Below are positions 7,301-59,024 of a DNA stretch of 64,000 bases, piece after piece; within the stretch, counting starts at the first letter, position 1, and the number at the start of each line of letters is the position of its first letter. The position numbers and the translations under genes were made by a program. The notes below the pieces were generated by a model. The model was not told the DNA's origin and did no database searches. It saw nothing but the letters and a program-made list of their open reading frames with translations. This stretch comes from Octopus vulgaris (lineage: Eukaryota), in contig OX597827.1 of NCBI GenBank assembly GCA_951406725.2, positions 66,464,001 to 66,528,000 of the forward strand, in the 5' to 3' direction.

Positions 7301-7929
7301 TTGTTTTACTGTTTTAATGTGTGTATGAATGTGTGTATGTGTGTATTAGCGCGCGCATGCCTCTCTGCGTTCGAGTATTTGAGCCAGAAAGTAATTATTT
7401 CCTCGAATATGTCGCTTCTGCAAAACAACATGTGCCATGTATAGAACGAAACCAAAATTAAAGCGAAGTTAAACACGGTCACATAAAACATTTGTAAAAC
7501 GCCAAATTCTCAGCGTAACAATATTAAATTACTAGAATATTCTTGCGCAATCAATTCTAATCGTTAAATGGAAGCGAAACATTAACATGCAATTAAGTGA
7601 AATATTCAGTGTAGCTAAAATATGAAACCAATAATTAAATATTTAAAATTCACAAGTAGCGAACTAATCCAGTACATCTCGCATATTAAATGAATTTTAT
7701 ATGAAATTATATTCTTGTTTTTGTTATGGTTTTGTCGTTCGTTATCATCTTGTTTAGCTTCCGTTCAGCACCGTCTTTATGGATACATAAACAAGACTGT
7801 CATGTTGTTAACACTGCCATGCAGTTCTGTTACTGTCCACTGTTTATAATAACCATTTTATCAAACGTGCGCCTCTCGTTCTCTCTTTTCCCTGTTTGAC
7901 TACAGTTAACGTAATACCCGACGATCTGT

Positions 7930-8533
7930 ATATTTTTCTTTATTACCCACAAGGGGCTAAACATAGAGGGAACAAACAAGGACAGACAAACGGATAAAGT
8001 CGATTACATCGACACCAGTGCGTAACTGGTACTTAATTTATCGGCCCCCGAAAGGATGAAAGGCAAAGTCGACCTCGGCGGAATTTGAACTCAGAACGTA
8101 ACGGCATACGAAATACGTATTTGTTTACTACCCACAAGGGGCTAAACAAAGAGGGGACAAACAAGGACGGACAAACGGATTCAGTCGATTACATCGACCC
8201 CAGTGCGTAACTGGTACTTATTTTGTCGATCCCGAAAGGATGAAAGGCAAAGTCTGCCTCGGCGGAATTTGAACTCAGAACATAACGGCAGACGAAATAC
8301 GTATTTGTTTACTACCCACAAGGGGCTAAACAAAGAGGGAACAAACAAGGAGTGACAAACGGATTAAGTCGATTATATCGACCTCAGTGCGTAACTGGTA
8401 CTTATTTTATCGACTCCAAAAGGATGAAAGGCAAAGTCGACCTCCGCGGAATTCGAACTCAGACGTAACGGCAGACGAAATACGGCTACACATCTTGCCC
8501 AGCGTGCTAACGATTCTGCCTGCTCGCCGCCTT
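7930..8533 (-). mobile_element. SINE family C trimer (one head, three ~184-bp bodies)
   Basis: cccacaagggg recurs at 7946, 8131 and 8315; a single head aaggcggcgagc starts at 8533. Confidence 0.93.
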
Positions 8534-9234
8534 ATACCTGAGGACGATCGTTACCTGAGAAGAAGAACACATATAGCTTCAGGTGTTGGCCCTTTGAAGT
8601 CAACGACAAGGGTACACCGACGTGAAACATAAACACATGGATGGGGAAGATGTGTTGAATTCTTTACTTTACGGTCATACGTTGCATTTTTGTTCTTTAA
8701 TCATAAATAATTGCCATTTCAATTCTATTTCAAATAGAATGTACCTGAAATGACCGCGCTCAAACTGTCGCTCTCATTTTTGTAATCCATTAATTTTCAT
8801 TTGAGTTAATCAGCTGCTATGTTTAGCACTTTGTCCAAACTTGTTGCGGCTCTATATTTGGCTCGTGTCTATCTTAAGTGCTTTGTTAATATTTCAGTTT
8901 TATTGACTTCTGCTTTCCCCAATCAATCGATAACATATGAAAGTTTTATACATAGTGGAATTGATTCAATTAATTAATATCCATCCTTTCCTATAAAAGA
9001 AATCAATATAAGGATGGGAAATTTCATTTAAATAATCATTATTTTGTCCAACTAGTATGGTTTGAATTTTCAATCTATGATGTATTGATTGGTAGTCAGA
9101 AATGATTTCGTATTGTTATTTATTCAACTGAGAAATAAACAATATTTTGGTACATGCAATCGATTTTGCAAATCATTCGTTGCAAAATTGTAGCATATTA
9201 GGAGAATTATAGGCAATGAAATTTTATAGGAAGT

Positions 9235-21955: not shown

Positions 21956-22998
21956 GAGTGTGTGTATGATTTTTTTCACCTTCCTTCTTGACCGTTCATT
22001 GGTGAAAGGGGCACGCAACATGAAATGTACAGTATATTATTATTGTCATCATCATCATCATCATCAACATCATCATCATCAGCATCATCATCATCATCGT
22101 CGTCGTCATCTTCGTCGTCATCATATGATTATCAACAGTTTACAGAGTCGACGATTTGAGAAAGCCTGAGACATTCTTCAAAAAACTGTAATGAACGAGG
22201 CCATAACAGCGGTTTTTTTAGAAGAGGCAAATAAATTTATTTGACCAGAGAAATTCACATGAAGTACATTGAAAAACGTATACGTAAAAAAGATAATCGC
22301 TGAACTTTATGATTCGGAAATACACAAAAACGAAAAAAAATTCATTTTATTTACAAGATTGTAAATACTTTTAATAATTCTACCAAAGTTTAATTGTTTC
22401 AGACAAGCAAATTTCAGGATATACAAGTTCACTGTAAAGATATAATATTAATATCGTAAAATGAATAAAGATATATACATAAATAAACTTGAACGGTTTT
22501 CTGAATACAAGGTTATATGAATACAGTTGTAGAAATATCTCCATTCAGTTATATCAGAACGCGTAATACCAAGCTATTTGAATATAGTTATATCAGTGCA
22601 TTTATAGAGCTGCATAATATAAGCAGAGCGCCATAAATGCGACTGCATTATATTATAGTTTATTTATAATAATAAATTTTGTTTGTTTTAAATCTAGCTG
22701 ATGTTAAATTCCGGGGTCAATAAAATAAGTAGCAGTTAAATACCGACGACTATCTTTCCGCGTGATTATAACTCTGAAAAATTAATAGCTGTGTGTTCAT
22801 GCTGGGAATATTTAAGCTTCTATGGATTCAGTTTATGTGAGTAATTTCACCTTAATACAATTATATTGTGAGAGCGAAATAATTATCCGAGCTATACAAA
22901 TAACCATATCACTGCACACATACACACACACACATATATAAGATAAACTTACTTGGAAACGGATGCGTAGCGTTCAGTCATACAATAATATATATAAA

Positions 22999-23036
22999 GG
23001 CGCAGGAGTGGCTCTGTGGTATGTTGATTGCCTACT
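22999..23036 (+). mobile_element. SINE family A head, interrupted after ~38 nt
   Basis: ggcgcaggagtggctctgtggtatgttgattgcctac, then unrelated sequence. Confidence 0.8.
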
Positions 23037-23430
23037 GCGCATGCGTTAGTCAGTGACCGCTACACTGGTATTGTCAAGACATTGCTTTCGCAGCGTTCTT
23101 GACGTGAAGAACATTGAAGATACGAATGTAATGTAGGTATCTATTTTTCTGGGAGGGGGATTTAGCGGGGTTTTGTTGTTTGATATTGTTTTTCTTTTCG
23201 CAAATAAGAAATGCTCACTGGGACCCGGACATTTGTCTGCCTGCAGTCGCGCTAAGTAACTCACTTAACTGTGAGAATTGTTGTTTTAGGTGGTGTGTCT
23301 CCCATTCGAAAAGAAAAAAGTTGTGAAATTCTTTGAATTTTACGAAAAATTGTGAAATTTGTGGATTTTACCAAAAAGTTGTGAAATTCGTGGAATTGTA
23401 CCAATTTGTGGAGCTCTGTTCCTGCTGGTG
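23037..23430 (+). mobile_element. 5' UTR of a Tx1/L1-like non-LTR element
   Basis: Homologous to the reverse complement of 30540-30710 (ggggtt..gttgttt..gatatt, ctcactgg, ctg.ctgcagt, ctcacttaa.tgtgagaattg.tgttt). A ~29-bp repeat occurs three times at 23315-23405. Confidence 0.7.
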
Positions 23431-28967: not shown

Positions 28968-29158
28968 GTTTCTTGTCATTTGACTGCGGTCATGCAGGAG
29001 CAAAGCCTTTAGTCGAACAAATCGACCGCAGTACATGTTCTTTGAAAGACTAGTACTTATTTCATCGGTATCTTTTGCCGAACCACTAATTTACGGTGTT
29101 GCAAATACACTGACCTCGGTCATCAAGCGATGGTTGGTGGTCAAACACAGACATAAAC

Positions 29159-29200
<42 letters not shown>

Positions 29201-29340
29201 GATGGTCTTCTTTCAGTTTCTGTCTACCGAATCTACTAAAAAGTATTTGGTCGGCCCGAGGCTCTAGTAGAAACATTTTCTGAAGATGCCTTTGCGTTGC
29301 ACTGAATCCAGAACAATGTGGTTGGGAAGTAACCTTCTTT
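28968..29340 (-). mobile_element. SINE family A body and tail; its head is displaced to 30793-30830
   Basis: Family A sequence resumes at aagaaggttacttcccaaccac on the minus strand. Confidence 0.88.
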
Positions 29341-30792
29341 TATTAATTAGTTTGGCCATAAATCCCTGATAAAGAAAGGAAGATGCGGGCTGGACGAAGA
29401 CATAACGAACTGAAATGATAAATTATATGATGATAATGAGAGCAACCAGCAACGCCCGTCGATTGCTGTTTACCCGAGCACATTGTTCTTCATAAGTACC
29501 ATACTTGAGGCAACAAACCTCTTACATAGTTCAAAGTAAAACATCAATGAGACTATAAACCTCTTACATTTTCAACACAAAATGCCATTGTGAGGCAATA
29601 AACCTCTTACACAAGTCCAAGTCCATTATAAAATCAATGAAACAATACAAATGAGGCACCAAGCCTCTTACTTTAATTAGTTACAAATCTTCCTGCCTGA
29701 CCAGACTTCTCGCCTCAGATAAACACCTGGACGGCATCAAGTCGGGCCAATTTAGCATCAGTCTGAAGGTATACTAGGGGAAGGAGTGCACTATCCTGAA
29801 CTGGTCTGTCTCCCCCGTGACTTTCGCAGCCACCTGCGAAGGCCAGTCAGGGTCTTCCATGCAGGACAGAGTCCCCCCCCCCCTTCGGCCCTCGTCAACT
29901 TCTTCCCACAATAAGTGGGAAGATACAAAATTTCTTTGTTCTCCAGGGGCTGGCTCGCAAATACGCAAGCCTCTTCGGGGGAGTCAAACAGCAACCACAC
30001 CGTTGCATATTTGACCCCTCGAGAGATAAACTTAATGGTTGGCATATGTTCTGCCAACTCCTCAATCATTTTTTATCAAAGACAGCGATGGTGTCGAGAG
30101 ACTTGGAGTAAGTCCTCAACACCAACGTCTTCTTTTCAAATTCCGTTAACCATTTTTTTGGAGGTGTCATTTCCCATTCCATAAGTTTATCTTAGTTCTT
30201 TGTCATGTGAAAAAAAATAAAAGTTCAAAACACAGTTCACAAAAATTCAAATAATAAAAGAGAAAAACAAAAAGAAAGTCTTAACAAAACGGAAGAAAAA
30301 AATTAACAGTTCAATACGAGTTTCAAAAATAAAAGACAGAAGAAGAGAGAGCGAGAGTTCAAAACACAGCAAAAACACTTTTTGGCCAAACAGTGTTCCC
30401 GGCCTTCAACGGGAACACAGCTTCTCACAATTATTGTATAATTCATCGGAAGTATTTTTTAAAGAATCCCACGAAATTACACAGGAACAATTCTCACAAT
30501 GAACTGTGAATAACAGAATTCTCAAATTAAATTAAATTTGGTGGCAGGATACGCCTCTAAACAGCAATTCTCACAATTAAGTGAGAAAATCAAAATGCAC
30601 CACTGCAGACAGAACAAACCCCAGAATCCAGTGAGGACTCCTTGCTTGTACAAAAAATAAATATCACAAACAACGAACCCCCACTGGACCCAAAAATCAA
30701 AAACATTTACCTTAAGGCAGAGACTCTTTCAGTAACAACTTTCGTCCGCTGCAAACCATCGTGACGACTTCAATGGCACAATGAAGACAACT
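29341..30792 (-). mobile_element. Internally deleted Tx1/L1-like non-LTR retrotransposon (5' UTR, ORF1 N-terminus, 3' UTR)
   Basis: 15-bp TSD gaagtaaccttcttt (29326-29340) / gaaataacattcttt (30793-30807), 13/15 identical. Frameshifted ORF EFEKKTLVLRTYSK...VWLLFDSPEEA...YLPTYCGKKLT is RRM-like, as in ORF1. The 3' end is aataaaa. Clade assignment is an inference. Confidence 0.72.
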
Positions 30793-30830
30793 GAAATAAC
30801 ATTCTTTCCACAAAGCCATACCTGCACCTA
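30793..30830 (-). mobile_element. SINE family A head (5' flank of the Tx1-like insertion)
   Basis: Minus: taggtgcaggtatggctttgtggaaagaatgttatttc. Confidence 0.75.
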
Positions 30831-32094
30831 TTCTTTCAAGTCGCAGCAACAACAAAGTTCTTCCAATATTATATAAATTATTATAGCGGCGTGCTGGCAG
30901 AAATTTTAACACTCCGAGCGAAATGCTACGCAGACAAGACACCGCTTCAGTAGCTACATCTTCTCTCTTTAAACCTATATACACTCCCTTTCAGCAAGAT
31001 CTTGGACATATCGTTTTTGAAAAAATATATTTTAAAGCTCAAATTTGTCGAGATAAGCTTTGTGTTAACTGTCGATAAAAAAAGATTACTTGGTTGTGAT
31101 TAAAAATTAATAATCAGAAAAGTGTGAGACGTTGTTGTTTTTTTGATATCTCTCCTTTCAATGAAGAAGGATTGTGTCCGGCAAGTTGGGTTTTCCACTC
31201 CACACGGCATATTTACTTTATCGAATTTACAAACTGATATCAGTCTTGCTTGCGCAGAAAAAGCACCAGCCTCATTGGAGTCACTTATATCATATATATC
31301 GTATATACATTTTCGTGGGCGTATGTATATGCTTACTTTTTTATTCATTATTCTCACTTAAAAAGAAAAATAAATCGAGTAATCGTGGAACAGGCCGCCA
31401 TCACATTTCCTCCCTTTGTGATGTATAACGCTTTTATAACCAACGGATTCATGAGAAGACGGAGTGTCTTTCAATCTACTTAACTGTGTGTGTGTTTAAG
31501 GGCACGTGGGCGAGTGTGTGAATGAATGACATAATTGAGGTTTTCGAGGCAACATTTCATTACATGCAACTGTAAACTAATTTAGAATTACTAGTGACTA
31601 TATGATAACCAGTATTGGTTCACACATGTAATGTTTTCTTATGTCATCACATTATCTTGCATTCTAGTAAAATCCCTCATTTTCATACATATTTGATTAT
31701 CAATACTAAACTGATGTATAACAATATCTTCATGAATCTTTATTTAACGAATGCTACATTTATTATAATACTGCCTAAGTTTATAACATGTGAAGGAATA
31801 AATATATCGCCATTTTACAGGTTTTTGCTTTATTACTCGTTGTGTGTATCTCCTAGATATTGTCATATTGCCTTGTGGAGATATCGCATATTTCCAATTT
31901 CAGTGAGAAGGATGAATATCAATATCTCTTAGATTCAATTACGAGGATGTGTCGATTAGTTTTCTCATCACTGACATGCACAAACACGTGCGTACAAAAG
32001 CAAACGCAGAGTGGCATGTGGACCCCACCGCTCCATGGACACGTAGATACGTACACAGACGTACACGTGCGTATGCTTATAGATAGATAGACAG

Positions 32095-37364: not shown

Positions 37365-37593
37365 AGTAACGAATGGCAGAAACGTTAGCACGCCGGGCAA
37401 AATGCGTAGCCGTATTTCGTCTGCCGTTACGTTCTGGGTTCAAATTCGCCGAGGTCGACTTTGCCTTTCATCCTTTCGGGGTCGATAAATTAAGTACCAG
37501 TTACGAACTGGGGTCGATATAATCTACTTAATCCGTTTGTCAGTCCTTCTTTGTCTCCTCTGTGTTTAGCCCCTTGTGGGTAGTAAAGAAATA
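37365..37593 (+). mobile_element. SINE family C monomer
   Basis: tggcagaaacgttagcacgccgggc head; 20-bp TSD tgtattttaaaatacagaat at 37345-37364 and 37594-37613. Confidence 0.93.
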
Positions 37594-38099
37594 TGTATTT
37601 TAAAATACAGAATGGTTTTATTTGAAGAAGGTTAACTGTTGTTATAATTCGGTCATGAGATAACATAGAAATTCGAACGTATGAACAAATATGCAAGCTA
37701 GTTTATTTTAAAACGATGCAGAATATTTATTTGAAGTTATTTTAAGTAATAAGGTCTATCCATAACTATTTGATATTTAAAAAAAAAATTCTTAATCTCC
37801 AAAAGTATTTATAACATACATTTTTACGATTATCCTCAATAGGTTTCCAGATTGATTATTTTATCTGTATCAGTAAGACTATAAAAACAAAAATAACATT
37901 CTCACGTCACACAAACATATGTAATTTTCCTAAATTTTATTCACACACGTAAACAGTTTTCAAAAACAGTTTTTACTTCTCTGTTTTGCAACTGCCATTT
38001 AGGTGTCTGCACAGCTTCAAATTTTTCATTGATATTACTGGTGTTATCGTTATGGCAGCTGTTACTGTTGCTAGTATTATTAATGAAATTATAAAAAAT

Positions 38100-40535: not shown

Positions 40536-40954
40536 TATTCCTATTTTTTACTGCCCACAAGGGGCTAAACACAGAGGGGACAAACAAAGACGCACAAACG
40601 GATTAACTCGATTATATCGACCCCAGTGCTTAACTGGTACTTATTCAATCGAACCTGAAAGAATGAAAGGCAAAGTCGACCTCGGCGGAATTTGAACTTA
40701 GAACGTAGCGGCAGACGAAATATCTATGTCTTTACTACCCACAAGGGGCTAAACACAGAGGGATGAACAAGGACAGCCAAACGGATTAAGTCAATTACAT
40801 CGACAACACTGCATAACTGGTACTTATTTAATCGAACCCGAAAGGATGAAAGGCAAAGGCGACCTCGGCGGAACTTGAATTCAGAACGTAACGGCAGACA
40901 AAATACCGCTTTGCATTTCACCCGACATCTTAACGACTATGCCAGCTCAACGCC
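40536..40954 (-). mobile_element. SINE family C dimer
   Basis: Two bodies, one head; junction gaaatat|ctatgtcttt at ~40720. Confidence 0.9.
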
Positions 40955-41820
40955 TATTATATAAACACAACATGTAGCATCCCAGATGCGCCACTTAACG
41001 TACCTCTCGTCAAACATCGCTGGCTCGAACCGGGACAGACAGCATGCGGCCCCTAGACCATGCTTTATAGTTAAACACATCAACAGATTTAATCTAAAAT
41101 TAGGTTGGACACCACGCGAGAAAAGAGCAGTCCAGTAAAAAGAATGCCATTACACTATTTCGTTTCTAAATGAGTATCTATTCAATGCAAGGTTATGTTA
41201 AACTGCAGATTAATTTGCAATGTCGATGGGAGAATATACCCGTAAAAGTAATGATATTTTAAGGACTATAGTAGGAATGCAGATCTGCATTTCTCGTGTC
41301 CAATCGTTCATTGAACTCATCAACAATTCGATAGATATGTCAGATAATTAGAAAAAAGAAAAGTAATATTTCTATCGTACGCTTATCACCCGATTAATAG
41401 AATCCGGAAAGTTCGCTGAATCTTTTGCAGGAAAAAACAAATAGCAAATTAGGAACTTGTCTTATCGGGCAGTGACTATATCTTTCTAAGTCTCCAAAAA
41501 CCTATTTTCTGCACGAATAAAATTTACAAAAATATAAAAAAAAAAGTATTTCATTTTGTCTAATTTCCAAATCTACCTCTATTTCAATTCATTTTGTGGA
41601 ATCCAAATTCTCTCTTATTTTCTAATAGCATTTTACATGATTTATTAGATTTTAGGTTTTGAAGTTCAGAAATTAAGTTGTCATATAAAAATAAATTAAG
41701 TCGCCATCGAATCTAACCGTTTCAACGAACAATAATTGCGATTACAGGAGGTTAATGGGCAAATCGTAAGAGATTAAGTGAAGAAATATAACTCCACAGA
41801 AAACGATACATTTGCTGCCT

Positions 41821-45825: not shown

Positions 45826-46916
45826 TATTATTATTATAAAAGTAATACGAAAATGTGTTTTGAAATAACAAGAACAAATTTACTACAACAACAAACTCAG
45901 ACGAAAACAATATATGTATGTATGTATGTATATATATATTTGTGACTATATACCACGAGCAGAAAGCAATGCATTGTATTTAAGTCGAATGTAATTATTA
46001 TTATTGACAGTATTTATATTAGTAACATGAATAATGATAATAACAGTCGCATTAAAACTAATATTACCATAGAGCGAATAATAACTATATAACGATAATT
46101 TAATATACACCATGTATACATACAGACCAATGCTAAAAAAGAAACAATGAACATACAGGAATAGAAACAAAGCAATATAAATGAAAAATGTACAAAAATG
46201 AAAAACACCAAGAAATATTAATCGTAGCGAAGGCCGTGTACGACATTAGAACTTGAGGCTAAATGAAGTTTTGAAAATAAATACACTGCTAGTCAAAAAT
46301 ATATTCTTCATTTAAATAGACACTGCATTACGTCTCCATTAGAGTAGTAGGCGAGGAATTCTAAAAGCCAATTAAAACATTTAAATAACTTCAGCTGGAT
46401 TTACAATAATGACAAATACAAAAGAGTAAGCGATGAATCAAACACATACAAACAAAAACATATACATACACATACAAATACTTAAGCAAACAAATAAGTA
46501 AAGACTTTTAAAAATATCTGCGTATCAAGCTATGAAATAAACAAGTAGTTAAATAAATTCAAGCACAATGTATCCGAAAATAACTCCTACCTCCGATGAG
46601 GATGATGGCGCCGTTGATGATGATAGTACTAGCATTTTCTTTCTTTTTTTTTTTATTTGGTGATAGTAATAATAACAATGAGGGTTTCAAATTTCGGTAC
46701 AAAGCTAGCAATTTCACTGAGTGGGTGGTGCGTCGAATACATCCATCCTAGTACTCAACTGGTACTTATTTTATGATGAGAGCAAAGTCGACCTCGGCAG
46801 AATTTGAACTCAGAAGGTAAAAAATGGACGAAATACCGCTAAGTAGTTTTGCCCGGCGTGCTAACGATTCTGCCAGATCGGCGCCTTGTAATAATACACA
46901 TTATATGATGATATTG

Positions 46917-47300
46917 TGGAGGCGCAATGGCCCAGTGGTTAGGGCAGCAGACTCGCGGTCATAGGATCGCGGTTTCGATTCCCAGACCGGGCGTTGTGAG
47001 TGTTTATTGAGCGAAAACACCTAAAGCTCCACGATGCTCCGGCAGGGGATGGTGGTGATCCCTGCTGTACTCTTTCACCACAACTTTCTCTCACTCTTAC
47101 TTCCTGTTTCTGTTGTACCTGTATTTCAAAGGGCCGGCCTTGTCACTCTCTGTGTCACGCTGAATCACCCCGAGAACTACGTTAAGGGTACACGTGTCTG
47201 TCGAGTGCTCAGCCACTTACACGTTAATTTCACGAGCAGGCTGTTCCGTTGATTCGGATCAACCGGAACCCTCGTCGTCGCAACCGACGGAGTGCTTCCA
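46917..47300 (+). mobile_element. Full-length SINE family B (tail type 1)
   Basis: Near-identical to the reverse complement of 2074-2465. Confidence 0.93.
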
Positions 47301-47449
47301 TATAGGATGATAACAACAATATAATCTTATATTTTGAACAAATTGCCCTCAACATAACATCTGGGTTTCTAACAACCTCCTCTTTCTTTTTCAGTCATAA
47401 TGCTTTTGTCGAATGTTATATTTGAGTCCGATCAACGATTTGCAAAGAA

Positions 47450-49619: not shown

Positions 49620-51952
49620 TTGTTTAAGAAATTATGATTTGAAATATTTTCTCGCTTTAGTTAAATCTTATATTCGCATTTTTAATAGCTTACCATTTAC
49701 GATACGAATACGTGAAAGAAGATTGTTAAAATACGTTTAGCTTACTAACCCAGATTAGCATGATATTTAACAACAAATACGATAAGGAACCGACGATATA
49801 GCGATTTACCGAATTCACAAAACTAAAACATTTGAAATGTGAAGATGAATAACTAGAGCAACGGCTAATAATTTGTAACGACATGAAATTATTTTTCCTC
49901 GTGGTTCCTTTTAGTATACAGATATGCTTAAAGGTCTGAATAATGTAAAAAATGAATTGCTCGTTAGAAGAGTATAATATTGAATGAATTGGATTACAAA
50001 GACTGCCCTTTCTTTGCTGAAAGGTCACTCTTAAACATTTAATCACATTACCAAAGGGAAAACGAAATATCAGGTATGTAGATTTTATTGTGGTTCAGTA
50101 TTGTATATATACATATATTTGAAATCCGGATTAATGTAAGTGTAAATTGCTAAGCTGGTAACTATGGCTATTATCACACGAACTGCATCATAAGAAATGC
50201 TGCCAAGGCAGAAAGATATTTCTCACACATTTAATATCTTTAATACCGACAAATCGGAAACTGTCTTCAGTATATTTGCATTAGATACACTCATGATAGC
50301 CAGAAGAGAACAGTAACTTATAGAAGAATTCGGTGTTTAATATTGCACCCCAAATTAAATTGGATGAAATATATTCTCAATAACTCTAATCCTTGATCTC
50401 ATTGAACCTCATTGTGTGCATTAGTTAATTAAGCCGCAATAAATGGACGAAACTTTAGAAACTACAAACTCACTTAAATATAAATAAAGATGAACTTCTG
50501 ATAAAGTCAATTGATTTAGTAAACTTTTGACATTTTGTTGTATTATGAAGAGAAAGGAATGAAATTAGTAGTTGAGTGAAATACCAATAACTAGACACTC
50601 CTGGCGTAGCGACTATGATTATATATGGCAGGTACGTGACTTGGAGCGAATGTACTCTATGAGAATGCGAATTATTACAACAAATTATTGCTGAAGATCA
50701 AATCGTTATCATAACATATATGGGGTAGCTAATTTCTGAATTCCAATATTTAGATATTAACAACTGGATAAAATAGATTCTAATTTCGAATACATTTTGA
50801 TTGTTAGAAAGAAGAGTGCAACGGAAATTCTGCAGGAACATTTTCTACCTCACACTCTTCACCGAATTCCAAACCCTTCATAAAGGCTAATAGTACATCT
50901 GACATAGAAATAAATCGATGGGTTTGTTGTAAATTTTGACACAAATTATACAAAACAGTATCGGTAAATCTACCAAAGACACCTTTCCGAATGTATTCAT
51001 CAACTACTCACACTTAAAAGTGTGAAAGTTACTAGAAAACTTGATGAACTCACATGCACATTTTCTCCAAAATTTCTTCTAGTTTAGGCGCCAGGGAGAA
51101 AACAGAATAAGCGTCAATCAGTCGATGGTTTAATGTAACGGGCAATGATGTATTCGCTCAAAATTATAGAACACATAAAACAAGTTGCGTGTCTAGTATT
51201 GCGATTGTTTTTATACACGTTTCTCTGACCGTATCGAAACGTACGCTGTTCACCCAGCACAACACACATACACCTTTCACAAGTTGCAATTTTATTCCGT
51301 TTCTTTCCTGTCCTCTAGCCAAAAAATAGCAGGTATCAATCTCCTGATCTACTTTCTTTTATAGCACGTCAAGTAAAGCACACACATTCTGTGTATATAT
51401 TTGTTTATCAAAATCAGCCAAAGTCGATTATGTCTTGAAGGCCATAATATACTACAGCGTATACCTGCATGAACATACGCGTTTGCATTAGGAAATGTCT
51501 TTCTTATTTTGCCAGCAGCCAAATAAGCTCTCTCAACTAAGGAAAACCTAATGTAAGCTTTCAACAACCTGAGGATGCTATCCTTACGCTCTTCTTTATA
51601 AAAGGCATCGAGTAAGATTTTTGCTTCAGGAACATAATGTTTCTATATCTTTAAAGTGCAGAGATTTTGTTGAGGCTAAATGAGAACTCGATACATGGTG
51701 GTTAGCAAATGAAATCATATGTATATTCCATTGTTGTTTTTGTTGTAAATAAATGACATGATGCACCGCTAAATTCTAGTGACTGTCTCTCCATTGTGAA
51801 TTAACTTTCAAGCCGGTCTTTAAGAAAGCAATGCAATCAATTTATTCTTTAAGAACACATCAGTCACAATAATTACACTTACACCTATTAGTGCCAAGAG
51901 TTTTAAAGATCCTGATTTTTCATGCAAAGAATATCGAGGTTAGAAATATTTC

Positions 51953-52371
51953 TATTTCTTTACTACCCGCAAAGAGGCTAAACACAGAGGGTACAAACAA
52001 GGACAGCCAAACGGATTAAGTCGATTGTATCGATCCCAGTACCTAACTAGTACTTATTTAATCGACCCCGAAAGGATGAAAGGCAAAGTCGACCTCGGCG
52101 GAATTTGAACTCAGAACGTAGCGGCAGAGGAAATACCTATTTCTTTACTAGCCACAAGAGGCTAAACACAGAGCGGACAAAGAAGGACAGACAAATCGAT
52201 TAGGTCGATTACATCGACCCCGGTGCGTAACTGGTACATCATTTATCGACGCCGAAAGGATGAAAGGAAAAATCGATCTCGGCGGAATTTGAACTAAGAA
52301 CGTTGCGGCAGACGAAATACTGATAAGCATTTCGCTCGGCATGCTAACGTTTCTGCCAGCCCGCCGCCTTA
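51953..52371 (-). mobile_element. SINE family C dimer
   Basis: 16-bp TSD aggttagaaatatttc at 51937-51952 and 52372-52387; junction gaaatac|ctatttcttt. Confidence 0.93.
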
Positions 52372-52886
52372 AGGTTAGAAATATTTCATTCGCTTTGTAT
52401 ACTTTTAGCGGAGGGTTGCGATTTTCTGGAAATTTTGTTGTTATATAAGATACGTTAAATACATGATGCGTAGGATCTTGTTTTTCATTATAAACTTCAT
52501 ACACGCATATACATATACACACTAACACACACGCACAGACACACAGACACACACAACTACACACGTACGCATGCACGCACACACACGCACATGCACATAC
52601 ACACATACGCATGCACACACACACACACACACGCACATAAAAGGACAATGGAAGGGGTAAGTTGATTACCTGGGCCTCGGTGTTTGACTACTACTTACTT
52701 TATCGACACCAAAATGATGGAAAGTAAAGTGAAAAAGCGGAATGAGGAGGAGGGGGAACGGTGTAGAAGAAGAAGAAGAAGAAGAAGAAGGAGAAGAAGA
52801 AGAAGAAGAAGAAGAAGAAGAAGAAGAAGAAGAAGAAGAAGAAGAAGAAGAAGATAACATTGCGTTGAATCCACTTTATCATACAC

Positions 52887-56610: not shown

Positions 56611-57084
56611 CGTACGTCTATAAGGAAAATTAAAAAGAAATCCGAGAAAACACAAACTCAAAAATAATAAAAATTACACAAAAGAAATAACAAATAAAAG
56701 CTGGAGACAGCTGCTTGAGTGGGGGAAAAATGAGTAAAAAGATTATGATGTCATCGAATTTAGTTTGTTTACAGCCCTGTAAAACTAACCGCTCGGTGAA
56801 AAAAAAGGGAGATTTGTGACGATTTGTTCGTGCTAAAATCTCTCCAATCGCATTGCCGAAATTGTTGCGGTCCAACGACTGAACAAGTAAAACATAACAG
56901 ATATGTTCCACGTGAATATGTGTAACTAAACTGTATGTGCGAATGTGTATGTGAAGTGTATGACTGAGCTGCGACACACCGAAAATAATCACATCATGTA
57001 TGTCCTAAATTGTGTCAGATACTTTTTATGGAAGACATAAACAAGATTCTGAAGTAAGACATTTTTGTTTATTTAAATGTCGGT

Positions 57085-57467
57085 TTCTTTATTGCCCACT
57101 AGGGGCTAAACACAGAGAGGACAAACAAGGACAGACAAACGGATTAAGTCGATTATATCGACCCCAGTGCGTAACTCGTCCTTAATTTATCGTCCCCGAA
57201 AGGATGAAAGGCAAAGTCGACCACGGCGGAATTTGAACTCAGAACGTAGCGGCAGATGAAATACCTATATCTTTACTACCCAGAGGGGACTAAACACAAA
57301 GGGATTAAATCGATTATATTGACCCCAGTGCATAACTGGTACTTAATTTATCGACCCCGAAAGGATGAAGGGCAAAGTCGACCTCGGCGAAATTTGAACA
57401 GGGAACGTAAAGACATACGAAATACCGCTAAGCATTTAACCCAGACGATTCTGCCCGCTCACCGCCA
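57085..57467 (-). mobile_element. SINE family C dimer
   Basis: Junction gaaatac|ctatatcttt at ~57260. Confidence 0.88.
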
Positions 57468-59024
57468 TAAACTAGTATATGACCGACGTCATATACTTGC
57501 TAGACACAGGCACAACATATTATCTATCCTAAAAGCATTTACACTCATGTTTATACATATCTGTGTATTATGTATATGGCGGTCTTGTTCATATTTTGAC
57601 TAAATATACTTAGAATAATTTGGTGAACCGATCATATGCTAGGATAATGTCTTCGAATATGATCGGTTCTTCCTGATCAATGTCTTTTTATTGCGGGATC
57701 GAACCTAGGATTGTGTTGTTTCAAAGTGAATATCTCAACACTGCATTACTCCATAGTGTCTCCGCCCACAATGAAAAACCTCTAAAATATTGAAATTTTC
57801 CAAAAAGTTATCTTGACTTGTCTTAACTTTTTACATAAATTATACTTGTATCATTTCTTCGTATTTTATTCTCTCGTACTGACCTCTCCTTTGGGTAGTA
57901 AATAATTCCTAATTGTGAAAGCATAATAGTTGATTTTCTTAATCTCTCTCATCGTTTTACTTAATTTTATTTTAATTCTCGAAGTTTTAAAGAAAATGTT
58001 TTCAAAAATGTTTTCTTCTGTATTTTCCTGACTCGCTACCAATTCATCATGACCAGGAATTTTTACACCAGAATCAAAGTTACTCGAAAATAATAAAAAA
58101 AATGAATAAAAAAGAAATGAATATAAATAAGAACTTAGCTAAACAAATGTCTTTATTTCTGAATTTATTTATGAGTCTATTTACGAGTTTTCAGTAATAT
58201 TATCGTGTTTATAACAAAATTGTTTCTGGCGGTTGTTGTCTCAACTATATCTTTTACTTTTAATTTTATATTTGAGTTACATAGATTTTATCACGTAATT
58301 AGCTACTACGATTTTATTTTTACATTTCTTAATCGAATTTTATTTCTGTAGTTCTGTTTATATCATTATCATTATTATTATTATTATTTTTAAATTTCTT
58401 CCTCTTTCCATCTTCTGCTACTCATCTATTCTTAATGACATTTATATTATAATGTTGTACACATGATCACATTTATCTGTATAATTTTTATGATTATAGT
58501 TGCTATTGTTTAGACATTTTAATATTTTATGTAATCTATATATTTCAAGTTGTATTTTTTTTTTATTTGATTATTCAGGAATACAAATTCAGTGCCCTGG
58601 CGAAATTTTTTACTTCTTTGTTTCATTCTCTCATTGATAAAGAATCATATTGTTAATATTCTGCATTATCATTACTCTTTCTTTCTTTTTTTTTTTTTTT
58701 TGCAAAATTTTCCTTTCTTACGTTTTCTGAATATTTTATTTGTGTTTGTATTTTGTTCCTTTACCATTTCCCTTGCAATTAAACCAAATAAAAAAAAAAA
58801 ACGGGAAGTAAAGCCCCCTATAGAGAATACAATTATCATTAACACTCAAAATTCAATAATTACTGGTTTGACTCATATTTTTACTCTTTTCCATAAATCA
58901 TGTTTACAAACTTCTAGATGGAAAAATAGAGAAAAAAAGTTATAATATATTGTAACATTAACAATAACAATACTGATTCAAACATAAACGGAAACCAGAA
59001 CAATGATAATGATACTACTACTGC

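Follow-up and report, generated by a model that had tools for sequence, protein, structure and literature searches.

Non-autonomous ORF1-only retroelements at one site of a SINE in Octopus vulgaris, with a complementary 3'-UTR motif that mostly tracks the SINE subtype

In the genome of Octopus vulgaris a short interspersed element (SINE) is split just past its A-box-like motif by a retroelement, and this locus raises the question of whether the insertion is an accident or the product of a lineage that targets the SINE. The locus lies in a stretch of 64,000 nucleotides (GenBank assembly GCA_951406725.2, contig OX597827.1, positions 66,464,001 to 66,528,000; hereafter the window), for which a preliminary description had proposed such targeting from two cases, at about 30 kb and 23 kb of the window. 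Genome-wide searches identified the inserted element as a derivative of long interspersed elements (LINEs) with a single open reading frame (ORF) related to ORF1. Such ORF1-only elements are probably inserted at one SINE base through target-primed reverse transcription (TPRT) with a borrowed endonuclease and reverse transcriptase (RT), where read-through into the SINE would pair with a motif in the element's 3' untranslated region (UTR) and favour the subtype of the last host. For the most part this motif, which complements bases 3-8 of the target, varies with the subtype of the SINE.

The window has about seven copies of the host SINE family, whose subtypes (T-type and A-type) differ at target base 4 (T or A) and base 14 (A or C). 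The 30-kb locus is made up of the following parts, given in the order in which they are read on the minus strand:

30807..30829, minus strand: head of the host SINE (its 5' part); the A-box-like motif lies at 30818-30808
30806-30793, minus strand: 5' copy of the target-site duplication, A-type SINE, AAGAATGTTATTTC
29340..30792, minus strand: inserted ORF1-only retroelement, decayed and internally deleted, 1,453 bp
30210..30792, minus strand: 5' UTR of this copy, in which the first ~14 bases of the full-length form are absent (from aligned 5' junctions)
29887..30209, minus strand: N-terminal remnant of ORF1, with a stop codon and a frameshift near 30070 (tblastn)
29885..29895, minus strand: site of an internal deletion of 660-710 bp, near 29890, through which ORF1 lost its middle part and with it the zinc knuckle (blastn)
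29678..29886, minus strand: C-terminal remnant of ORF1 (end set by eye from the frames of relatives)
29340..29677, minus strand: 3' UTR, terminating in AATTAATAA
29379..29386, minus strand: target-complementary motif, mutated in this copy (GCATCTTC instead of GCAGCTTC)
29354..29366, minus strand: terminal hairpin, decayed in this copy
29339-29326, minus strand: 3' copy of the target-site duplication, AAGAAGGTTACTTC
28968..29325, minus strand: body of the host SINE, with the B-box-like motif at 29309-29299 (72-76% identical to other SINE copies in the window)

In order to tabulate the flanks of related copies, the genome was searched from both ends of the element. The 5' query (40 scored of 497 candidates) gave 30 loci, 29 of them other than the window copy itself, and the SINE head was found directly upstream in 24 of these 29; because the head was part of the query, this count may be slightly biased, although 38 of the 39 non-self alignments start at query base 31 or later. 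The 3'-UTR query, which was free of SINE sequence (40 scored of 330 candidates), likewise gave 30 loci, and the tail was kept in 25 of 29. Seventeen of the 25 tailed copies continue into the SINE body, 15 directly and two after one tail repeat, two more show a partial match, and one runs into another head 30 bases on. More than 20% of flanks in one repeat is the criterion given for a target-specific element (PMC4494074), and these shares lie above it at both ends. Random flanks, named in the preliminary description as grounds for abandoning the idea, are therefore not what was found; the SINE dominates the tabulated flanks, always in the same orientation and at one position, through separate events. 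Exact patterns of tail plus target matched the genome 50, 96, and 1,091 times, and the reversed-pattern controls 0 times; such patterns select SINE neighbours by construction, and the counts are to be read as a floor only. All 100 listed matches of the 1,091 have an A at the free position, which indicates a specific tail and not random AT-rich DNA.

The form of the insertions could be followed in 45 loci with both junctions. Their inserts range from 13 to 2,130 bp with a single 3' position and differing flanks, duplications measure 3-18 bp (14-16 bp in 18 loci), and the subtype base is the same on both sides in 43. These loci thus combine the fixed 3' end, variable 5' truncation and target-site duplication of TPRT by retrotransposons without long terminal repeats (non-LTR), and the fixed end, the truncation and the differing flanks together argue for separate target-primed insertions rather than one duplication. 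At the 30-kb locus the two duplication copies are identical at 12 of 14 positions (13 of 15 with the preceding A) and depart alike from the usual SINE, with G for C at base 7 and A for G at base 10, which points to a genuine duplication of that SINE copy's own sequence. The split just past the A-box with a 15-bp duplication, as described earlier, is accordingly borne out. Two candidate explanations of the junctions were tried and rejected. The SINE head is not the element's own 5' end, as inserts down to 13 bp join heads and some copies have other flanks, and a transfer of target bases by the RNA into the new site is unsupported, given the agreement of the subtype base and five off-site copies without target bases.

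The search with a 5' junction pattern returned 260 matches, two-thirds of which were plain SINE variants; ten of 30 loci were insertions, four of the window family and six of other families. Junction matches at a spacing of 2.0 kb with near-identical 3' ends were observed at C1:223694762-223706806 (seven) and C1:29272950-29276985 (three), and are likely young head-to-tail arrays of one SINE-targeting subfamily. If these arrays are real, the head plus the duplication is enough as a target. At another locus (L153) the 3' end of the element is present with an inverted duplicate.

The second relative in the window is placed as follows:

22998..23020, plus strand: head of the second host SINE
23021..23035, plus strand: decayed T-type duplication segment, 11/15 (by eye)
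23036..23301, plus strand: 5' fragment of a copy from a T-type subfamily, without its 3' end

It had been reported as a co-oriented relative at the same SINE position starting at 23037, and this stands with the start moved to 23036. The fragment lacks the 3' end and a SINE body; it aligns with the 30-kb copy over 127 bp at 69% identity and is closest to a T-type locus elsewhere (L144, 73% over 309 bp). Judging from 78 intact SINE heads in ~1.0 Mb, a co-oriented match within 2 bases would arise by chance in ~2 of 10,000 cases per end. When the 1 kb upstream of the two window heads was compared, nothing in common was found (best E 0.12). This bears on the view that a single ancient insertion was multiplied through segmental duplication or as a composite of head, element, and body, in favour of which it could be said that head and element are always co-oriented and that a composite transcript is conceivable. 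Such a history has next to no probability, as 5'-truncated inserts of every length are joined to heads with their own duplication and different flanks, and two host subtypes, at least three element families, and copies with non-SINE flanks are involved; the 45 two-junction loci and the unshared upstream DNA of the window copies refute it.

What kind of element is it, then? Copies with both ends are mostly 1.9-2.1 kb and contain a 5' UTR of ~600 bp, one ORF with a CCHC-type knuckle (an open frame of 366 amino acids in L079), and a 3' UTR of ~340 bp, which terminates in ATGAATAA without poly(A). No match to the ORF2 proteins of six autonomous LINEs was found in 12 elements assembled from 20 regions or in the window copy, and the lack of an own ORF2 marks them as non-autonomous ORF1-only derivatives. 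The 2.0-2.1 kb copies with both junctions are full-length forms with only ORF1 between the two UTRs, as in HAL1-like elements. The ORF is homologous to the ORF1s of autonomous LINEs in this genome, with 10 of 14 ORF1 frames at E < 1e-6 (best 6e-16, with the ORF1 of L161). The zf-CCHC domain is present in the ORF1s of partner-type LINEs and weak in one homolog (P0001, E 0.058); a Pfam scan of the element ORF1 gave nothing useful and no L1 ORF1 match, its look-alikes with RRM and CCHC domains are a lead only, and a protein search returned a single match, an uncharacterized Octopus sinensis protein (68%). A second ORF1-only family of ~1.7 kb (L221, L239) likewise terminates in the SINE body. From these sequence relationships the elements appear to be HAL1-like derivatives at the level of the L1/Tx1 group, with the Tx1 clade proper as a candidate; their derivation from local LINEs with a zinc-knuckle ORF1 is the reason for filing them as HAL1-like and not as HAL1 proper. 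HAL1 is not known to be site-specific. The element had been announced as Tx1/L1-like, with an endonuclease-RT ORF2 of the apurinic/apyrimidinic (APE) type expected in a full-length copy; the kinship of its ORF1 with APE-type LINEs of the L1/Tx1 group holds, and the ORF2 of its own does not.

The length of 1.45 kb given earlier similarly applies to the insert at the 30-kb locus, not to the element type, which measures 2.0-2.1 kb; the internal deletion is seen against four of the five relatives compared (L061, L074, L075, L078), the fifth being itself shortened. Compared with residues 11-115 of the ORF1 frame in L079, the N-terminal remnant shows 69% identity (tblastn). Contigs from organisms B and C span the 5' junction region (30725-31197) and show 10 and 9 differences there, which suggests an old insertion common to them; no joint of an empty site was present among the matches listed in contigs of four sequencing runs. 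The separation of the A-box from the B-box is plain from the motif positions given above, and the insertion sets the two motifs 1.5-2.1 kb apart, by which the RNA polymerase III promoter of the SINE may, as had been proposed, be disabled. The idea that the element's 5' end (GGTTCCGGT..GTTCAGT, resembling the SINE T arm) restores a B-box proved weak and was dropped; the GG and CC of the box are absent.

If the elements lack an ORF2, the enzymes would have to come from elsewhere. In related autonomous LINEs, ORF2 comprises an endonuclease, an RT, and a zf-RVT domain. For one such LINE (L165), the RT matches turtle, fish, and coral proteins, one of which is an automatically named Tx1 149 kDa protein (Tx1-named match at 38%), and its best solved match is human LINE-1 ORF2p. 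The best candidate for the partner lineage, by sequence, is the family of L230, in which ORF1 runs into an endonuclease N-terminus (70% over 23 amino acids to the ORF2 of L162/L164) and 16 of 19 other places start in the SINE head or the duplication. A search for the partner via zf-RVT (150 scored of 25,801 candidates) gave 0 of 23 tails from 30 loci ending in the SINE site, seven of the 30 loci being without a located tail, and none of 20 longer regions ended there. Within each of four pairs of autonomous L1/Tx1-group LINEs at different places (L162/L164, L165/L174, L166/L167, L176/L178) the same 3' flank was observed, and these are either further target-specific families or duplications. Five zf-RVT matches ~5.4 kb apart at G000:C2:73046133-73068136, three of them with open frames of 1,140 amino acids, are likely a tandem array of a young LINE.

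The host SINE could itself be a stand-in for another target. Its A- and B-box-like motifs were recognized by eye, ARAGORN gave 0 hits and Rfam 0 on one copy, and the head is putatively of tRNA origin; the Rfam tRNA search of the genome listed 34 places, as positions only. A tRNA-Gly(GCC)-like sequence was detected with relaxed ARAGORN settings at L093:1251-1400, where it adjoins a SINE head; an inverted piece of the head is contained in this locus's 5' insertion junction. That the true or original target is a Gly-like tRNA gene, the SINE being struck through resemblance, is very unlikely in our estimation. The L093 sequence resembles the head by eye, and the element subfamilies, ~25% apart in the last 130 bases, are older than the apparent T-type SINE expansion; on the other hand, 240 loci contained 0 tRNA genes at the default threshold, none of the insertions examined lies in a true tRNA gene, the motif in the 3' UTR complements SINE-specific bases that differ from the L093 sequence, and more than 1,000 exact SINE junctions exist.

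The evidence that the element RNA may take part in the choice of host comes from this motif. Its sequence, AGCTTC or AGCTAC, lies about 25-45 bases ahead of the tail and reproduces bases 3-8 of the target in reverse complement. The exact 6-mer matching the element's own host was present in 49 of 70 loci against 0 of 350 upstream windows (of 79 loci, nine that are duplicated or are truncated inside this region were excluded). In the discovery set of 79, TAC motifs stood in T-type hosts 38 times and in A-type hosts 0 times, TTC motifs in A-type hosts 22 times and in T-type hosts three times, two were ambiguous, and 14 had no motif. An independent tail class gave the same picture, with AGCTAC next to T-type SINEs in 499 cases and A-type in 41, and with AGCTTC next to 94 A-type and 6 T-type SINEs among the first 100 of 173 listed (by eye); for comparison, 37 of the first 100 listed of the 1,091 matches are A-type. 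Among intact SINE copies 58 of 78 are T-type (in ~1.0 Mb). In a 3'-UTR tree that kept 57 of 78 rows (21 were dropped as truncated or divergent), the hosts of the window clade are A-type in 22 of 24 rows and those of the other clades T-type in 33 of 33, with binomial p values against the intact-copy shares of 2e-11 and 6e-5, respectively, age and kinship ignored. Inspection of the listings by eye also points to several sister subfamilies with different motif bases and different host types.

A fold of 70 element and 18 target bases predicts a nested stem whose outer helix is formed by the motif against the target. The mean predicted motif-target pairing is 0.70, against 0.38 with base 4 swapped and 0.26 with the segment shuffled (n = 70), and 0.16 for the same pairing in 23 other LINE ends, mostly of one family. 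The inner terminal hairpin varies compensatorily, being GGCC-N5-GGCC in A-clade relatives and TGCC-N5-GGCA in others. Two more insertions at the SINE site were met unsought in flanks, at L075:4775 and L078 (+):1139; the motif of the former is still complementary with a 2-base bulge, and the latter has no motif.

The mechanism that we consider probable would begin with the partner endonuclease, which would supply the basic site specificity, cutting the bottom strand at TGGT^AAG and, at a distance of 14-16 bases downstream, the top strand; the partner RT would copy the element RNA in trans, as expected from established TPRT. As the tail and the first target A together form AATAAA, transcripts would extend 10-30 bases into the host SINE. 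This read-through would pair with the 3'-UTR motif in a long stem that encloses the terminal hairpin, and it might next anneal to the primer strand at the nick, in a manner similar to the annealing of target-like 3' sequences to the primer proposed for SART1Bm and R1Bm (PMC7265360). A lineage would thereby tend to return to the subtype of its last host, and a matching motif would be selected, adapting afterwards. The further step, that in an APE-type LINE group the element RNA helps to pick the DNA target by pairing, with read-through RNA on the primer strand and the antisense motif on either the read-through or the displaced top strand, so that the 3' UTR would make targeting partly reprogrammable and the motif would have been re-tuned in several lineages when one base of the host SINE changed, is a more speculative suggestion from the sequences and rather unlikely as it stands.

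Several observations weigh against the proposed mechanism. Unrelated DNA follows the tail in five of the 25 tailed copies, none of the junction loci has an ORF2 directly upstream, and no intact autonomous partner was recovered at the SINE site; L230 breaks off after ~25 ORF2 residues. The 3'-UTR tree needs only one switch of motif and host plus two strays, and the ORF1 tree (31 of 32 rows) adds one more, on the single row of L187 (support 100/100), which has the T-motif and a T-type host inside the A clade by ORF1 and may be a recombinant. The A-type SINE is older than the T-type (median 13% vs about 6-7% from the majority sequence), so timing may explain part of the sorting. One discordant subfamily, in which the mismatched motif was kept, makes up 31 of the 41 TAC/A-type cases (by eye), and a motif match is thus not required for subtype choice; in the proposed mechanism it would be read as a recent switcher. 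The L221/L239 family and the incidental copy L078 use the site without a clear motif, and no stem folds in the window copy (z 0.71).

The discordant and motif-less families and the unequal ages of the subtypes are what would be expected if targeting were by protein only, i.e., if several partner endonucleases, or a single one over time, chose the subtype and the motif merely kept an RT-bound fold and followed the target passively. Site choice by the endonuclease is also the standard view (PMC4494074), and Mutsu subfamilies track 5S variants with RNA complementarity unmentioned in the main text of that study (PMC5340908). Still, the pairing of the motif with target-derived bases would be needed even then, L187 combines an A-clade ORF1 with a T-type 3' end and a T-type host, and subfamilies of both types that look contemporary (~90% identity within subfamilies) sort sharply. 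Protein-only targeting is a real possibility, though we lean against it. A different role for the motif, in which it pairs with the displaced top strand and the read-through with the primer strand, so that the RNA acts as a guide reading both strands, seems unlikely to us. The part of the top strand that the motif complements lies exactly within the duplicated segment, a segment that has to be melted during integration, and the motif covaries strongly with the subtype; the RNA stem, however, fully explains the same complementarity, only 6-10 bases are involved, the discordant subfamily does not fit, and the case consists of covariation and folding predictions. Borrowed enzymes with an RNA stem that favours the last host subtype thus remain the reading that we prefer.

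Other repeats of the window were noted in passing. Tandem units of ~184 bp, 75-91% alike, lie at 7929-8537, 37374-37600, 40536-40955, 51947-52372, and 57084-57472, and a third dispersed family forms an inverted pair at 2082-2468 and 46916-47301 (96% over 387 bp). Among the loci retrieved, L143:1-1263 holds an uninterrupted frame of 420 amino acids, which by eye looks UDP-glycosyltransferase-like.

What these loci describe is parasitism at three levels and at scale, with LINE-dependent ORF1-only elements nested in a SINE and more than 1,000 exact junctions within a single genome. Over hundreds of insertions, a base of the target and a base of the RNA covary, with a known exception, which amounts to a natural compensatory-mutation experiment on the shares of RNA and endonuclease in the site choice of LINEs, an open question. 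If RNA pairing steers insertion, this would bear on the retargeting of non-LTR elements for gene insertion. For repeat annotation, such loci are split SINEs with ORF1-only elements and not truncated LINEs; the words "target" and "nested" are absent from the main text of a recent octopus repeat annotation (PMC13282606). No report of a SINE-targeting Tx1/HAL1-like family or of an antisense 3'-UTR motif of this kind was found in the open literature, a scope outside which Repbase Reports and most subscription papers lie, and entries may exist there.

Among known systems, the closest are LINEs of the Tx1 clade that insert into transposons, such as Tx1(L) in Tx1D of Xenopus, Tx1-Mar and SINEU-3 in Mariner-N4_AMi, Tx1-8_Crp/Tx1-4_AMi in LTR elements, and Tx1-9_AMi in Harbinger (PMC4494074). 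With these, as far as they are described there, the octopus elements share a fixed site in a mobile element, a duplication of ~15 bp, non-autonomous co-users, and tandem insertions that sandwich the duplication, and they differ in the tRNA-type SINE head as target, in protein-coding ORF1-only passengers, in the number of junctions, and in the complementary motif. HAL1, an ORF1-only non-autonomous derivative of mammalian L1 (PMC5753468, citing Bao and Jurka 2010), is alike in its coding content and in having arisen more than once (here in at least two families); in contrast to it, the ORF1 of the octopus elements contains a zinc knuckle, their tail is AATAA and lacks poly(A), and they have a single target. 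For SART1Bm and R1Bm, too, a proposal exists that target-like RNA at or near the 3' end anneals to the bottom strand at the nick and sets where reverse transcription starts, but that RNA is target-sense, whereas the octopus motif is antisense, is located within the 3' UTR, and varies together with the alleles of the target. The subfamilies of Mutsu are split by maternal vs somatic 5S rDNA (PMC5340908) and are thus similarly sorted by sequence variants of one RNA polymerase III target; Mutsu is, however, autonomous and sits in real genes, and its main-text description gives no complementarity between element RNA and target. Keno in U2, Dewa in the tRNA-Leu spacer, and the Dada DNA transposons in tRNA genes (PMC4494074, PMC3706591) also use a multicopy small-RNA-type sequence as a safe target, although their targets are host genes or spacers and Dada, as a DNA transposon, makes duplications of 6-7 bp. 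The targeting of transposons by Tx1 elements being already known, what is new here is the number of insertions, the existence of families that encode only ORF1, and most of all a complementary motif that covaries with its target.
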